A stretch of DNA of 32,756 nucleotides from a virus. Taxonomy: Duplodnaviria > Heunggongvirae > Uroviricota > Caudoviricetes. A model generated the notes under the pieces. That model was not told the origin of the DNA. It was given only the letters and a program-made list of their open reading frames with translations, and made no database searches. Position 1 is the stretch's first letter, and each line of letters opens with the position of its first letter. The stretch is from the IMG/VR virus record IMGVR_UViG_2541047689_000008. One strand, written 5' to 3'. The position numbers and the translations under genes are program-made. Of the stretch, positions 21,393 to 26,790 are shown in pieces.

Positions 21393-21548
21393 TTACTCCT
21401 CAGGTTCGTAAGCTGTGAAGACAGCGACCTCCGTCTGGCCGGTTCGGATTCGTACCTCGCAGAGGTCTTTCCTCGTTACCAGTGCCGTCACTATGACGGT
21501 TAAACAGATGACGATCAGGGCGATTAACATCGCCTTTTGCTGCTTCAT
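21393..21548 (-). CDS. hokD: Hok-family type I toxin (HokD/RelF-like)
   Basis: MKQQKAMLIALIVICLTVIVTALVTRKDLCEVRIRTGQTEVAVFTAYEPEE, matches recalled HokD. AAGGAGAAG upstream. The in-frame upstream extension in the ORF track is rejected. Confidence 0.85.
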   Translation of the reverse strand: MKQQKAMLIALIVICLTVIVTALVTRKDLCEVRIRTGQTEVAVFTAYEPEE

Positions 21549-21759
21549 AGCCTGCTTCTCCTTGCCTTCCGGCACGTAAGAGGCTAACCTACATGTGTCT
21601 AGCATGAAATTGGCCTCAGATTAATGTTAAGCGTCTTGCAGGACGCGTAATGTTAACTGGGGCTTTTCTCTATCTGCCTTTGGTGTTCATGCCCGAGGCA
21701 GATAGCCTCAAGCACCCGCAGCCATTCTACTTAACTACCTTTACCTCGCCAATATGAAA

Positions 21760-22051: not shown

Positions 22052-22273
22052 CTAACGTTTCTGAGTAGATAATGCCCTGAAGTAAGCGTTGCTAATCGAT
22101 TGATAAATCTCAATATCTTCAGAACCTGCAAGTTCGACATACTCACTCTCACATGTAGACGGTTGAGCAGTGTGTTGGACACTTCTCGTGTTCGAGTGGA
22201 TTGTTCCTATACTAACTTCTGTTAATATAGGTAGTTCCAACTGGTTTCTGTCGTTTTTTTTCATATAAATCAC
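22052..22273 (-). CDS. Hypothetical small protein translationally coupled to the deaminase gene
   Basis: 73 aa. GTG start overlaps the deaminase stop (GTGA); GAGG 5 nt upstream; an ATG lies 9 nt further in. Confidence 0.4.
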   Translation of the reverse strand: MIYMKKNDRNQLELPILTEVSIGTIHSNTRSVQHTAQPSTCESEYVELAGSEDIEIYQSISNAYFRALSTQKR

Positions 22274-23541
22274 TCAAGCCTCAACAAGTTAAGTTTATTA
22301 CTATCAACTTCAGCAATAACTACCTGTTCTAATTTAGGAATCGCTTTGAGACTAACGCTATCCACAGGCATAGCCGCACCCTCTGTCGCTAACTCTAGCA
22401 CCCCAGCTTTAGATTTTCGAGATCCAGATTCAAAAAGCTCAAGAAACCTAGTTGGAGCTACTCCATCAAATTGTATCAATTTCACTTTTTCATCAGTCTC
22501 GATTACTGATTCGGTCATCGCATCCGAATGAAGTTTAAGAGCTAAGCTTTTTCTATACGGCTCAATAAAATATACTTCAGAGATACCAGAAGCGATAATA
22601 TGCCTTGCGCAGGAATGACATGGATAGGTTGTTACAAATATTTTTCCGCCTAAAATTCTTTCTCCTGCCACACGAGATGCGCCAAGAATCGCGTGCATTT
22701 CTGCATGAACCGCTCTTGAAAACTCTATTAAATCTTTTAATCGTGAGTTTTTTATAATAGTTTGAATCGCCGCTTCTCTTTTTTTTACAGGGATTATTTT
22801 TTCCTGTACAAGGCTATCAATGACAACTTCAGCCAATATTCTCTTTTCCGCATCATTCGAGCAATTTCTATTTTGTAATGTATAACAACGATGATCAGGA
22901 TCAATAACTTTTAAGCGGATAGATTGTTTACCATAGAGACCACCACCATTACGAGGCACATCATTCCAACCGGTAGAAAGAAGTTCTCCAGATGAAGATG
23001 TTACTGCAGCACCAACTTGTCTTGATAGACATGCAGAATTACGAGCCGCTGAGGTGGCTGCATACATTGCATTTTCCTCTTCAGTCGGTGATATAACTGA
23101 ACTCCTAAAAATTAGCTTAAAGAAACGTTCCAGTTTAGATAGAATTTGGCCTTTAGCATCGGCATTTCCTGGCTCTGCCAACCCACTGTCAACCCGCAAA
23201 AAGTAATCACACTTCGGGAAAGTGTCTCTAACTGATTGCCCATGATCGAACTCTTCACCAGAATCAGTATTGATTAGTTCAGCAATATCTTCAACGCTTA
23301 GTCTATTAATTTTTGAAAGATTTTCACGCCTTGCCTCTAAAGGGGAAAATACACCTATAGAGAAAATCATTTTTCCATAGATTGATTTCAACAATCTCAA
23401 GCTCAGAAGAGTTTTTAACTGAGTCAATAATATGACAAATTTTTTGATTTTTAATCTTACTCGCTTCCCCTTTGCTGGATTCATTAACAATATCATCAAA
23501 TTCACCAAAGTTTTTTTTACGCTCGGCGCTAATTTTAGCAA
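22270..23541 (-). CDS. C-terminal portion of a frameshift-split gene: dCMP/cytidine-deaminase-fold domain
   Basis: Zinc-binding signature VHAEMHAILGA...(29 aa)...TTYPCHSCARHI (HAE...PCxxC), preceded by AARNSACLSRQVGAAV. The first 60 or so codons of this frame are Leu/Lys-rich AT-driven noise overlapping the upstream ORF. AT-rich. Confidence 0.7.
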   Translation of the reverse strand: MLKLAPSVKKTLVNLMILLMNPAKGKRVRLKIKKFVILLTQLKTLLSLRLLKSIYGKMIFSIGVFSPLEARRENLSKINRLSVEDIAELINTDSGEEFDHGQSVRDTFPKCDYFLRVDSGLAEPGNADAKGQILSKLERFFKLIFRSSVISPTEEENAMYAATSAARNSACLSRQVGAAVTSSSGELLSTGWNDVPRNGGGLYGKQSIRLKVIDPDHRCYTLQNRNCSNDAEKRILAEVVIDSLVQEKIIPVKKREAAIQTIIKNSRLKDLIEFSRAVHAEMHAILGASRVAGERILGGKIFVTTYPCHSCARHIIASGISEVYFIEPYRKSLALKLHSDAMTESVIETDEKVKLIQFDGVAPTRFLELFESGSRKSKAGVLELATEGAAMPVDSVSLKAIPKLEQVVIAEVDSNKLNLLRLE

Positions 23542-23908
23542 TAGCTAATTTTGCAAGAATATCACTACCATAAATTTCACGAAGTTTATCACCCACAGTT
23601 ATAAGTGACTTGAATTTCTTTAGATTAGTGCTTTCATCAATATTAATTGATGTATATTTTGAATTAATCCGGATTAGATCACTCAAGCGTATGTCGTATG
23701 TTTTATAGCCATATTTTTTAAGCGAGAATGATATCTGCTCAGCAGTCTCATGTAGCGGTGAACCAATTGGCCCACAAAGTGCGATTATAATCTCTGGAGT
23801 AACACTGTCTTTTATTTCTTGAGTTGCATTAATTGTTGACAGCTCGGCAACATCATCATTCCCAACAAGTTGAAACTCTTGACTTTTATCTAAGGCTGTG
23901 CCTTGCAT
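23324..23908 (-). CDS. N-terminal portion of the same split gene: nucleotide-kinase-like domain with degenerate P-loop
   Basis: PEIIIALCGPIGSPLHETAE resembles a Walker-A/NMP-kinase P-loop but lacks the GK[ST] lysine. Frame ends at TGA 23324 after running about 218 nt in parallel with the downstream frame. AGGATAAGGG upstream of ATG 23908. Confidence 0.65.
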   Translation of the reverse strand: MQGTALDKSQEFQLVGNDDVAELSTINATQEIKDSVTPEIIIALCGPIGSPLHETAEQISFSLKKYGYKTYDIRLSDLIRINSKYTSINIDESTNLKKFKSLITVGDKLREIYGSDILAKLAIAKISAERKKNFGEFDDIVNESSKGEASKIKNQKICHIIDSVKNSSELEIVEINLWKNDFLYRCIFPFRGKA

Positions 23909-24199
23909 GCCCTTATCCTAATTAATAGTATTTTTCCCTCTTTATAGCTAATTAAGATAAATGTTGCAAAGTAATATTGCACATGAAACTTGAGTTAGTA
24001 ATCCTTTTGACTAGATGGTTTGACCTGCGCCCTATAGATAAACACACTACGCTGTTAGCAACGTTCGCTTCTGGCACAAAGCAGGCACCACACTAGTTCT
24101 TCCCTGTACCATAAAAATGTCAATTCACATATGAACAAATGCTATTTAATCTAAAAATGTCTATAAATACCGTGTAATTCACTGATAAAATGCCAATAT

Positions 24200-24577
24200 T
24201 CACTGAATAACTTCACTCCTCCGGTACTCGCGACAGATTATGTTTAGGTGACTGTCGTAGCGACGTATTTCTCCGTCAGGTAATGACCAGATAAGGTCCG
24301 GATCAACCACAGCGGGTTTCTTCACCTTCGCCCTAGAGAGTTTTTTGCGGGCATTTTGCCAGTCCTTTCGTGCCTGTTGAGACGGGAATAACGCGTAGCC
24401 GGAGTTGTATACATAACAACTGGCAACCAGCTCTCTGGCAAGAATGCTCATCAGATATCTTGTCGCACCTGTCTTGGCTTCCAGTTGCCGTAACGTCTCA
24501 CGACCGCTCTGGCGCACGAGTTCCACCACCTGCCCTTTAATTTTTTCCCGCTCTTCTTGTGTAAAAACTTTTGCCAC
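24200..24577 (-). CDS. Hypothetical protein downstream of the replication initiator (P position)
   Basis: 125 aa basic ORF, 40 nt after the O-like gene. No family recognised. Confidence 0.45.
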   Translation of the reverse strand: MAKVFTQEEREKIKGQVVELVRQSGRETLRQLEAKTGATRYLMSILARELVASCYVYNSGYALFPSQQARKDWQNARKKLSRAKVKKPAVVDPDLIWSLPDGEIRRYDSHLNIICREYRRSEVIQ

Positions 24578-24617: not shown

Positions 24618-25583
24618 TTATCCCCTGAAACCAGGCGGAATTTCGGTATCCGGTTCAGAAATATGATTCACACAACGCTTTATTGGCGAACGCCCCAGGC
24701 GAATAACCAGCTCATCCCATTTTTCGCGAAGCTTTGACGGACTCATGATGTTTTTGACCCAGAATGGATCTCGCTGTACCCGACCAAACATTTCGCAAAT
24801 TTGTCTGTGGCTTCTGCCATCCAGCATCCGCATTGTGCGCACGTCATTGGCCCAGGCAGTCCAGTTAGGCTCTTTTGGTCGCATGATCTCGCCATCATCA
24901 CTGGCGGCCTGTTCGTAGAGACCCACGATCCGCCCCCAGATCCACTGCGCACACGCCAAATCCTCCTGGCTACCCCACTGCCGTTTTTTCGCACTAAACA
25001 CAACTGCGTCAGGGTGCCGGATTAAAAAATCCTGTTCAGCCGTCTGCTGGTCCGGTTGCAAAGCTTCCGGACGAAAAGTGTTTTTATTCTCTGTAGTAAT
25101 CTCTGTTGTATTCTCTGTAGGATCATCGGGCCATTTTGACCCGATGACATTGGGTCGTTTTGAACCAATGGAGCGTTTCATTTTGACCTCTTCCATCATG
25201 TCATTTTGACCTGATGGAGCGACGCATTTTGAACTGATGGATTCGCTCAATTTGCCACCATCTAAAAGATCGCTCCCGTAGTTGATCGTGTAGAAATTGG
25301 TCATGTCGCGCTTTGATTTATTGAGCTTTTCGCAACGCAAAAGCCCCAGCGTTTTCAGACTTGCAAACGCGCGCTTTAACGTTGACTCTGACCAGAATGG
25401 GAACTGCGCCAGCCATTGTTCCGTTGTGTTGTAAATCCAGCGAACACCATCGCATTCCATGCCGGAATTGGTATCTCTCAACCAGTAATGCAGTTGCTGC
25501 AACACAATGGCTTCGTTTAAGCCAATCTTCATCGCAAGCTGTGTGTTTATAACCAGTGGGCGTTCAGCAAAAAGAAGGCTCAT
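24618..25583 (-). CDS. Replication initiator / replisome organiser (lambda O-like role), with ori iterons inside the gene
   Basis: 321 aa from ATG 25583 (MSLLFAERPLVINTQLAMKIGLNEAIVLQQLHYWL...). The coding sequence contains five direct repeats at 23-24 bp spacing. Follows a cII-position gene and the Cro-like dicC. Confidence 0.72.
   Translation of the reverse strand: MSLLFAERPLVINTQLAMKIGLNEAIVLQQLHYWLRDTNSGMECDGVRWIYNTTEQWLAQFPFWSESTLKRAFASLKTLGLLRCEKLNKSKRDMTNFYTINYGSDLLDGGKLSESISSKCVAPSGQNDMMEEVKMKRSIGSKRPNVIGSKWPDDPTENTTEITTENKNTFRPEALQPDQQTAEQDFLIRHPDAVVFSAKKRQWGSQEDLACAQWIWGRIVGLYEQAASDDGEIMRPKEPNWTAWANDVRTMRMLDGRSHRQICEMFGRVQRDPFWVKNIMSPSKLREKWDELVIRLGRSPIKRCVNHISEPDTEIPPGFRG
25132..25234. 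repeat. Replication origin iterons (5 copies)
   Basis: CATTTTGACC at 25132, CGTTTTGAACC at 25156, CATTTTGACC at 25179, CATTTTGACC at 25202, CATTTTGAAC at 25225, each followed by a GATGR-like motif. Flanked by TCTCTGTAG repeats (25088-25120) and A/T-rich stretches. Confidence 0.7.
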
Positions 25584-26085
25584 AATTCCATCCAGCTTTT
25601 TGTTGGTATTGCTGTCGATACGCAAGCTTGAAAGCAATTGCTTTTTCTATAAGTTCGTCAGTTTCACGATCTACAACGGCAGGATCTGCAAAAAGCAGTC
25701 CGGACTCCACCACATCGCCATATTCTTTATTTAACCCAGCGATCATGTACGTAATACTCTTTCCGTCACTAATTTCACGATACAACCTGAAATCACTAAT
25801 CCGGATAGCCTCCATAATTGCAGGCACTAGCGCTGTGAACTTTTCACGCTTATCCCTGGTGTCGATAGCCTTCCAGCGTTCGAATATCTTCACTCGATTA
25901 ACGCTAAGCGCTCGCTGATCAACCGCGCCACCTTCATATGTGACACGCTGAACATCGATGTTCGGGCGCTCTTTCAAAGCCCAGAATGCTTCAGTGATTA
26001 ATATCGTCGCCTGCTCCTGTGTCATTCCTGGTCGACATATCCAGGCATCCAGAGCCTCACGAGCCTGTTCAGGAGTGATTTTCAT
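25564..26085 (-). CDS. Hypothetical early protein (cII position)
   Basis: 173 aa. ATG 26085 with GGGGG upstream; overlaps the dicC stop by 17 nt and the O start by 20 nt. Confidence 0.5.
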   Translation of the reverse strand: MKITPEQAREALDAWICRPGMTQEQATILITEAFWALKERPNIDVQRVTYEGGAVDQRALSVNRVKIFERWKAIDTRDKREKFTALVPAIMEAIRISDFRLYREISDGKSITYMIAGLNKEYGDVVESGLLFADPAVVDRETDELIEKAIAFKLAYRQQYQQKAGWNYEPSFC

Positions 26086-26299
26086 TGTTCAACCCCCCCG
26101 CCCGCTTCGTCTTACGATATTCGTCATAAACTTTGGGATCATACTGAAGCTCCCCGCCAGATGCCTCCTGTAGACGCATCGCGCGACCTTCGGGAACTAA
26201 ATCCCCTTTCCAGCTATAAAGCGAAGCCAAACGAATACCTGCTGCTTGTGCAAGTTTTGTTTTTGAACCGAAATACAAAAGAGCGTCAGTTTTAAGCAT
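26069..26299 (-). CDS. dicC: Cro-like repressor DicC
   Basis: 76 aa with helix-turn-helix (SKTKLAQAAGIRLASLYSW). Divergent from dicA across an operator-bearing intergenic region. Confidence 0.72.
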   Translation of the reverse strand: MLKTDALLYFGSKTKLAQAAGIRLASLYSWKGDLVPEGRAMRLQEASGGELQYDPKVYDEYRKTKRAGGLNNENHS

Positions 26300-26313
26300 T
26301 TAAAACACCTTGC

Positions 26314-26333
26314 TTGTTAGTCATGACTAACAA
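26314..26333. promoter_or_regulatory. Operator: perfect 20-bp palindrome in the dicC-dicA intergenic region
   Basis: TTGTTAGTCATGACTAACAA. A second 8-bp palindrome TTAGCTAA lies just upstream of the dicA start. Confidence 0.6.
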
Positions 26334-26382
26334 AATAGATGTTAACAAAAACATAGTCAATACGATTTAGCATTAGCTAACT

Positions 26383-26790
26383 ATGGATACAAAAAATTTA
26401 ACCATCGGCGAACGCATTAGGTATCGTCGGAAAAACCTCAAACACACCCAAAGGTCTCTTGCTAAAGCCCTGAAAATCTCCCATGTGTCTGTATCACAAT
26501 GGGAACGGGATGATAGTGAACCTACAGGGAAGAACCTTTTTGCCCTCAGCAAAGTATTGCAATGCTCACCAACATGGATTCTATTTGGCGATGAAGACAA
26601 GCAACCAACACCACCCGTTGAGAAGCCGGTTGCCTTAGCCCCCAAAGAACTAGAGCTCCTTGAGCTGTTTAATGCACTGCCAGAATCAGAACAGGATACC
26701 CAGCTCGCCGAAATGCGAGCTCGAGTAAAAAATTTCAATAAACTCTTTGAAGAATTACTAAAAGCCCGTCAGCGGACAAATAAAAGATAA
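26383..26790 (+). CDS. dicA: cI-like repressor DicA (HTH-XRE)
   Basis: MDTKNLTIGERIRYRRKNLKHTQRSLAKALKISHVSVSQWERDDSEPTGKNLFALSKVLQCSPTWILFGDED..., 135 aa, matches recalled DicA. Confidence 0.9.
   Translation: MDTKNLTIGERIRYRRKNLKHTQRSLAKALKISHVSVSQWERDDSEPTGKNLFALSKVLQCSPTWILFGDEDKQPTPPVEKPVALAPKELELLELFNALPESEQDTQLAEMRARVKNFNKLFEELLKARQRTNKR

Follow-up and report, generated by a model that had tools for sequence, protein, structure and literature searches.

A probable replication origin within the initiator gene of a Qin/DicA-DicC-type lambdoid prophage

Here, we analyse IMG/VR virus record IMGVR_UViG_2541047689_000008 (Caudoviricetes), a stretch of 32,756 nucleotides that we call the window and that carries a Qin/DicA-DicC-type lambdoid prophage of Escherichia coli. 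Comparative sequence evidence makes it likely (probability about 0.8) that positions 25060-25262 are the replication origin of this prophage, located in the linker-coding middle of its own initiator gene. The arrangement itself is familiar, being of the lambda ori type; the gene family is new to it. In the mechanism that we propose, the N-terminal winged-helix domain of the initiator would bind six palindromic iterons spaced by 23 bp, probably as dimers; covariation shows that protein and DNA are matched. The nucleoprotein complex would then open an adjacent low-GC element of three TACAGAGAnTAC 12-mers, as the position, composition and DNA-level conservation of this element suggest. In the step of which we are least certain, a lambda-O-like C-terminal domain and a DnaT-like tail might recruit the helicase-loading machinery of the host. 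As in lambda, rightward pR-like transcription would cross the origin; the gene order is observed, and an activating role of transcription is presumed. The same DNA would double as code for a disordered interdomain linker rich in Ser, Lys, Glu and Thr.

The repeat array and the adjoining 12-mers

The features of the proposed origin are listed in the order in which transcription meets them.

24618-25583, minus strand: replication initiator gene, 321 amino acids (aa), ATG at 25583 and stop at 24618-24620, with the putative origin in mid-gene
25240-25262: iteron 6, degenerate, first met in the direction of transcription, in the 23-nt register, GATTCGCTCAATTTGCCACCATC
25217-25239: iteron 5, GAGCGACGCATTTTGAACTGATG
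25194-25216: iteron 4, palindromic, CATCATGTCATTTTGACCTGATG
25171-25193: iteron 3, GAGCGTTTCATTTTGACCTCTTC
25148-25170: iteron 2, palindromic, CATTGGGTCGTTTTGAACCAATG
25124-25146: iteron 1, the best palindrome, adjoining the 12-mers, CATCGGGCCATTTTGACCCGATG
25085-25120: three tandem 12-mers, candidate DNA-unwinding or single-strand-binding element, on the coding strand TACAGAGAATAC AACAGAGATTAC TACAGAGAATAA
25060-25120: stretch of low GC (30-35%) with an A-rich coding strand, transcriptionally downstream of the iterons

At 25124-25262, six units follow one another in a 23-bp register; five of them are clear and one is degenerate. The 23-nt units start at 25124, 25148, 25171, 25194 and 25217, with the degenerate sixth at 25240, which gives start-to-start spacings of 24, 23, 23, 23 and 23; relatives carry a good copy (GATGAGGTCAAAGTGACC) at the position of iteron 6. 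A spacing of 23 bp is about two helical turns, and all iterons would therefore lie on the same face of the DNA. The plus-strand consensus is the palindrome CATCrGGTCATTTTGACCyGATG. Units 1, 2 and 4 are near-perfect palindromes, and CATTTTGACC is found exactly in three units, CATTTTGAAC in one and CGTTTTGAAC in one. We defined the array by repeat search and register; Tandem Repeats Finder detected the 12-mers and missed the 23-bp array, because its copies are too divergent. The lag-23 self-identity of 25124-25262 is 0.53, a value that none of 2000 shuffles reached; over the whole window, the median is 0.34 and the 99th percentile 0.45. Allowing up to three mismatches, the 23-nt consensus has two matches, both in the array, where 0.00 are expected by chance.

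The three 12-mers at 25085-25120 read TATTCTCTGTAG / TAATCTCTGTTG / TATTCTCTGTAG, encode the peptide TENTTEITTENK and are predicted to be unstructured as single strand. The gap from the core of iteron 1 to the first 12-mer is 14 nt in the window, and the same gap is found in 15 of the 17 listed Enterobacterales loci whose N-domain identity is at least 70%. A preliminary description of this DNA had reported five repeats of about 19 bp with a period of 23-24 bp inside an O-like gene, flanked by further repeats and A/T-rich stretches. The repeats are indeed real, non-random and within the gene, but are better described as six units in register; flanking repeats and A/T-rich stretches are present, but the 12-mers and the low GC lie on one side only, the GC content of the other iteron flank being 40-47%. 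DnaA boxes were not found in or beside the origin (the nearest TTWTNCACA, at 24558, is at chance level), nor did any Rfam family match the origin region.

The only other periodic stretch of the window is 30100-30300 (plus strand), inside an exonuclease gene (28646-31117). As a second repeat array it was rejected: it has a degenerate in-frame 21-nt periodicity in a Gln/Asn/Glu-rich segment and looks like protein-level low complexity.

Covariation of the repeats with the N-terminal domain

Two kinds of comparison, a natural domain swap and base-for-residue covariation, support that the repeats belong to the N-terminal domain of the initiator, as candidate binding sites. The E. coli prophage loci L004-L006 keep the C-terminal half of the gene up to window position ~25084 and have another N-domain. 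Their repeats at the same position differ as well, with a 15-nt period and the unit GACCCGTCAAnnTT (GACCCGTCAAATATTGACCCCTCAACGGTT...). These swapped initiators (L004:2997-3944, L005:3001-3963 and L006:3000-3953) share their C-terminal domain and tail with the initiator in the window. Genes for a DnaC-like ATPase and a DUF1627 protein follow two of them but not the third.

Our comparison set with a window-type N-domain consisted of 80 genomic and five phage loci. They come from Escherichia, Pantoea, Pseudomonas, Acinetobacter, Staphylococcus, Anoxybacillus, Limosilactobacillus and metagenome-assembled genomes (MAGs) of Chloroflexota, and most of them carry 3-7 repeats directly after the N-domain. 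Across the family, repeat spacing has its mode at 23 (69 spacings), followed by 22, 24 and 21. The arms of the iterons differ from clade to clade around a constant core (CAAAATG or CAAATTG). At 61 loci a half-site consensus could be called, and at all 61 the base 5' of the CA core is matched by residue 67, the first of the predicted recognition helix (FWSE-S-TLKR): S/A/M/V/E goes with T (35 loci), D with G (18), K/R with A (6) and N with C (2). In the window, this residue is Ser (codon 67 at 25383-25385) and pairs with the T of GGTCA. The mutual information of 1.47 bits equals the full entropy of the base. In a tree that excludes residues 66-68, there are about 12 independent switches of the base, each of them together with residue 67. 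Such switches are also seen between close relatives, namely Staphylococcus phage P954 (R, GGACA) and an S. caprae prophage (S, GGTCA), which are 81% identical, and the Pantoea loci L025 (K, A) and L032 (D, G), which are 88% identical. This covariation comes as close to evidence for binding as sequence allows, and it bears out, together with the swap, the earlier proposal that the repeats would be sites for the initiator.

Three loci in MAGs with distant labels, L012 (labelled Veillonella parvula), L013 (Bacillota) and L057 (Collinsella), have N-domains that are 98-100% identical at the amino acid level to that of E. coli, with the identity of L057 covering 53 residues only. These contigs are probably mis-binned Escherichia prophage DNA from gut metagenomes.

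Constraint on the DNA rather than on the peptide

Owing to the 23-bp period, the core GGTCAAAATG is read in three frames (SSKC, GQND, EVKM, GSKR and GSKW), and the array therefore encodes no peptide repeat. Mean pairwise identity by codon position was calculated over 10 ungapped Enterobacterales genes. For third positions, the values are 0.55 (N-domain), 0.82 (iterons), 0.97 (12-mers) and 0.49 (codons 168-180, just 3' of the 12-mers); the corresponding values for first and second positions are 0.90, 0.86, 0.89 and 0.50. Codon choice within the 12-mers is strongly skewed. Glu is encoded 180 times by GAG and 13 times by GAA, versus 596 and 840 times in the rest of the same genes, and Thr codons are ACA or ACT in 369 of 383 cases, versus 467 of 1116 elsewhere in the genes. 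This bias holds in loci of 32%-70% GC and is therefore due to selection on DNA. In addition, 13 of 212 copies of the 12-mer are read in another frame. Taken at the level of sequence comparison, these patterns support a constraint on the repeats as DNA and not as peptide.

Natural length variants occur. Five of 290 aa (P0017, P0019, P0020, P0022 and P0023) lack exactly 31 aa, i.e., 93 nt or four units (23+23+23+24), and retain one or two iteron units. One variant of 331 aa (P0111) has gained a fourth 12-mer.

The 12-mer across phyla

Tandem CAGAGAnT motifs with a spacing of 12 nt (sometimes 11) follow the 21-24-bp repeats in 75 of the 85 homologous loci. More widely, TACAGAGAnTAC is present in 2-5 tandem copies beside ~23-bp iterons inside initiator genes (loci L003, L007-L091 and L093-L212), and it is conserved as DNA from Firmicutes and Chloroflexota MAGs to Proteobacteria and next to at least two N-domain families. 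A search of IMG/VR with the exact 12-mer pair CAGAGANTACNACAGAGA gave at least 120 matches, and most of those listed are initiator genes with 23-bp repeats upstream. Among the matches listed, 66 have the window-type N-domain upstream and 41 have a second Pfam-less family resembling a winged helix-turn-helix (RPIAF...LSQxxYW...GWFYKT..EW.EETGL). The 145 nt upstream of the 12-mers are periodic in both groups of listed matches, mostly at 23 bp; a maximal autocorrelation of at least 0.45 was reached by 53 of 66 and 30 of 50 sequences in the two groups, versus 1 of 305 control windows. As far as these sequence patterns go, 23-bp iterons combined with TACAGAGAnTAC 12-mers inside the initiator gene are a shared architecture of putative origins. 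Two IMG/VR contigs of the second family (L094 and L120) have an HNH endonuclease domain inserted between the N-domain and the in-gene repeats.

Position, low GC and absence of predicted single-strand structure fit a role of the 12-mers as a candidate unwinding element, and the conservation of their sequence suggests that some factor may read it. A literature search for the 12-mer sequence returned unrelated primers only and no description in such a context.

Domain organization of the initiator

The protein encoded around the array comprises two predicted folded domains and a short tail.

25269-25583, minus strand: N-terminal domain, aa 1-105, predicted winged helix-turn-helix, presumed to bind the iterons
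24696-25037, minus strand: C-terminal domain, aa ~183-296, homologous to the lambda O C-terminal domain
24621-24683, minus strand: C-terminal tail, aa 301-321, IKRCVNHISEPDTEIPPGFRG, nearly identical to the final 21 residues of E. coli DnaT

An AlphaFold2 model of the N-domain (aa 1-112, alignment of 87 sequences) is a winged helix with a predicted local distance difference test score (pLDDT) of 84 and a predicted template-modelling score of 0.75, with the predicted recognition helix at aa 66-79. The top Foldseek matches of this model are the iteron-binding N-terminal domains of the staphylococcal plasmid RepA proteins 4pql and 5kbj, the latter with DNA, at template-modelling scores of 0.55-0.62 and weak E-values of 3e-3 to 1e-2. 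ArsR, MarR and PadR regulators follow, and many winged helix-turn-helix regulators score similarly. Since the E-values are weak, we claim a fold class for the N-domain and not homology. Compared as a profile with PDB sequences, the N-domain had matches at chance level only, and the RepA_N domain (PF06970) had no Pfam match in the initiator.

The C-terminal domain aligns to lambda O by BLASTP with 34% identity over 148 aa (aa ~147-294, E 7e-28), and its tblastn matches include the O proteins of lambda, 434 and Stx phages. The name O-like, as first proposed, therefore suits this domain but not the N-domain, which lies outside the lambda O family (no match to Pfam Phage_rep_O, and no N-terminal alignment in BLASTP to lambda O). 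The repeats sit between the N-domain, a predicted winged helix, and the C-domain, which resembles that of lambda O; this position agrees with the suggestion of a lambda ori arrangement, with putative binding sites in the initiator's own gene. Units 25124-25262 correspond to aa 108-154; the models place folded domains at aa ~10-105 and ~183-296. In the full-length AlphaFold model, which we used solely for this point, the repeat-encoded aa 109-174 appear as a disordered linker. The linker had been described as Ser/Lys/Pro-rich; it is rich in Ser and Lys, together with Glu and Thr, but not in Pro (S8 K7 E7 T6 P5 of 70 residues). The idea that one sequence serves two purposes held up, given reading in three frames, equal conservation of all codon positions and the disordered linker.

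The initiator belongs to PHROG 391 (phrog_391, 'replication initiation O-like', E 1e-91). It has no Pfam family, even at E<10, and an NCBIfam search returned nothing but the DnaT-tail match. NCBI labels it 'hypothetical protein'.

Helicase loading and the DnaT-like tail

Genes of the P, DnaC or DnaB type were not found after the initiator in the window or in phages HannyBb, PhiR42_1, mEp460_4F5 and SfIV. Because the module lacks a P, DnaC or DnaB-type protein, we propose that the C-domain and the DnaT-like tail may recruit host helicase loading. A P.GFRG-type tail is present in 23 loci of the comparison set, all from Enterobacterales. An open reading frame (ORF) with a Walker-A motif within 1.1 kb downstream was found at none of these 23 tail-bearing loci, versus 14 of 58 tail-less loci (Fisher p 0.008). 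By tblastn, the C-domain but not the tail has matches in O proteins that work with P, namely those of lambda, 434 and Stx phages.

The tail matches positions 159-179 of 179 in NCBIfam NF002770, and the PDB DnaT chains 2ru8, 9zbt and 6aep match aa 301-321 only. With 17 bits over the last 21 residues, the initiator stays far below the cut-off of 201 bits for full-length DnaT. The name 'primosomal protein I' (DnaT) in two phage records rests on the 21-residue tail alone. Among related Enterobacterales phages, the DnaT-like tail is borne on different C-terminal domains.

On the way in which the 12-mers and the tail act we hold a joint proposal only tentatively. The 12-mers would be a sequence-specifically recognised element, e.g., in single-stranded form while the origin opens, similarly to DnaA-trios or to the plasmid 13-mers bound by Rep, as opposed to a mere AT-rich region; in addition, Enterobacterales O-only phages would load DnaB via a copy of the DnaT tail and without a phage-encoded loader. 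If true, recognised 12-mers would explain why this DNA sequence is retained from Firmicutes to Proteobacteria, next to initiator N-domains of at least two kinds that look unrelated. Through the tail, the initiator would connect to the host factor that DnaT itself contacts (PriA/PriB or DnaB-DnaC); this would explain a type of module called 'not yet understood' (PMC12315714) and would give the DnaT tail a role.

Prophage context

The gene order of the prophage is dicA on the plus strand, followed on the minus strand by dicC, the YdaT/cII-like gene, the 321-aa initiator gene and a DUF977 gene.

26383-26790, plus strand: dicA, cI-like
26332-26360, minus strand: predicted pR-like sigma-70 promoter (consensus scan only), upstream of dicC(cro)-ydaT(cII-like)-initiator
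26069-26299, minus strand: dicC, cro-like
25564-26085, minus strand: YdaT/cII-like gene (ydaT)
24200-24577, minus strand: DUF977 gene directly 3' of the initiator (Pfam PF06163, E 6e-20; PHROG 142, 'Ren-like exclusion protein')

Transcription from the predicted promoter would traverse the putative origin. The DUF977 gene occupies the slot of lambda P and ren, and its family is neither a helicase nor a loader. The ORF that encloses the initiator spans 24618-25637 (minus strand) and contains all repeats and 12-mers; ATG 25583 is the likely start, in agreement with the annotation of phages HannyBb and PhiR42_1. In these two isolated phages, the initiator gene is 95% identical and has no neighbouring replication gene. 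The mEp460_4F5 gene is 78% identical overall and almost invariant over the iterons and 12-mers. A near-full-length copy of the initiator is present in 1779 of 5426 complete E. coli genomes, about a third.

Other parts of the prophage are noted for completeness. A gene for an anti-phage dCTP deaminase (22270-23908, minus strand) is split into two overlapping ORFs of 194 and 423 aa in the window and is intact in E. coli KK19-02 and SJC33 (98% identity). The slot from DUF977 to hokD in which it lies is variable and is occupied in other strains by HEPN/DUF262 or FRG-domain genes. The matches that reach the Rfam gathering score are the sok antitoxin RNA beside hokD (21543-21717, minus strand), the small RNA DicF (27950-28001, plus strand) and two cspA-type thermoregulator leaders (14702-15087 and 17597-17989, both minus strand) of cold-shock genes of the prophage.

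Alternative explanations

The repeats might bind the initiator and yet have regulation as their main role, be it autoregulation of the operon, titration or handcuffing, or incompatibility with or exclusion of related phages, with opening and helicase loading taking place elsewhere. Plasmid iterons serve initiation and copy control alike, covariation proves a match between protein and DNA and not the firing of an origin, and other low-GC stretches are nearby, at 24090-24210 and 26250-26400. These stretches, however, are ordinary intergenic or promoter regions, whereas the fixed 14-nt geometry between iterons and 12-mers (15 of the 17 listed Enterobacterales loci and the window) looks like an origin. 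The 23-bp repeats are near-universally paired with 12-mers, and lambda and pSK41, which share the layout, fire from the in-gene site. We thus regard a mere control function as improbable. An even smaller chance is left for an array that merely arose through slippage or recombination where modules are exchanged, as a recombination hotspot free of sequence-specific function. The junction of N- and C-domain in natural hybrids does fall at the edge of the array, and unit-wise deletions and gains occur, but slippage products decay, while this array persists in organisms ranging from Staphylococcus to Pseudomonas, and its arms vary by clade in step with one residue of the protein.

It is just as improbable that the periodicity merely reflects a repetitive flexible linker at the protein level. 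The region encodes a disordered, low-complexity linker, and the 12-mers are in frame and encode TENT/TEIT repeats. A 23-bp period with its core in three frames is nevertheless incompatible with a peptide repeat, third positions are conserved as much as first and second ones, and the Glu and Thr codon bias of the 12-mers, together with the 13 of 212 copies in another frame, contradicts this explanation. Hardly credible at all is a function of the palindromic units as mRNA hairpins for translation pacing or stability. Three units do fold as hairpins, and the single-strand fold is more stable than that of shuffles (z -2.8). Only three of the six units, however, are good palindromes, half-sites rather than pairing are conserved, the region matches no Rfam family, and covariation with a residue of a DNA-binding helix has no explanation in RNA.

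Several points nevertheless weigh against an origin of the proposed kind. Half-site bases were called by majority rule, with support down to 0.5 in some loci. The AT content of the 12-mers is only moderately high, and they could be conserved for a function different from unwinding. The N-domain has weak structural matches (best Foldseek E 2.9e-3), and the full-length AlphaFold model is poor (pLDDT 52, alignment of nine sequences). The anticorrelation of tail and loader is not absolute, as L004 and L006 carry the tail and a DnaC-like gene. Two papers on DnaT structure define no partner for DnaT residues 154-179, and recruitment of a host factor via the tail, the least certain step of the mechanism, is speculative. 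Finally, the prophage in the window may be defective, which would leave the nature of the sequence unchanged.

Implications

An in-gene origin at 25060-25262 would mainly improve the annotation of a Pfam-less 'hypothetical protein' that is encoded in about a third of complete E. coli genomes. The rule of one residue for one base could be used to predict origin specificity and prophage incompatibility within a phage initiator family that crosses phyla. The conserved 12-mer marks a class of putative origins and is usable to find them by DNA pattern alone. The DnaT-like tail may provide an entry point to host helicase loading by initiator-only lambdoid phages.

Comparison with known replication systems

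Initiator-only modules of lambdoid phages have been noted before. Zhang et al. (Genome Res 2025) describe O-only modules, with mEp460_4F5 named among the phages; they are treated there by gene content only, and their replication is called not understood (PMC12315714). The module in the window is alike in having a single O homolog after cro and a cII-like gene and no helicase or loader, whereas iterons, 12-mers, the residue-base code and the DnaT-like tail do not appear in the searched portion of the article. The window shares with iteron plasmids (RK2, F and pPS10) and with oriC an array of initiator sites, spaced by about two helical turns, beside an AT-rich element of tandem repeats. The Rep proteins of some plasmids of the RK2/F/pPS10 type bind one strand of their 13-mer element sequence-specifically. 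Unlike these systems, the window has no DnaA boxes, the proposed origin lies inside a coding sequence, and the 12-mer is unrelated to the 13-mers. A classification similar to 'initiator-solo' was reportedly used by Weigel and Seitz in 2006.

The RepA_N plasmids are similar in domain layout. In pSK41 Rep, the N-terminal domain binds boxes located centrally in rep, the linker encoded by the origin is dispensable, and the C-terminal domain makes host contacts (PMC5703833). A winged-helix N-domain, which is predicted in the window, central in-gene repeats, an ori-encoded linker and a separate C-terminal domain are features in common (PMC5703833), and 4pql and 5kbj are the best structural matches of the N-domain model, although with weak E-values. 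In contrast to RepA_N proteins, the initiator in the window has no PF06970 domain, has another C-terminal domain and belongs to a phage of a Gram-negative host, and no antisense-RNA control is evident in the window.

The lambda ori differs in several respects. The N-domain encoded in the window is outside the lambda O family, six units spaced by 23 bp compare with four of ~19 bp in lambda, and the low-GC part consists of three conserved 12-mers. The window has no P gene, and its initiator carries an extra DnaT-like tail that is absent from lambda-type O. Both systems nevertheless have iterons with internal dyad symmetry inside the initiator gene, between its two domains, followed by an A-rich, low-GC stretch on the coding strand. 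In both, the site would be transcribed from pR through cro and a cII-like gene, and the C-terminal domains of the initiators are homologous (34% identity). The array in the window also has what generally characterises iteron origins, i.e., at least three direct repeats, about two helical turns apart, that covary with their initiator.

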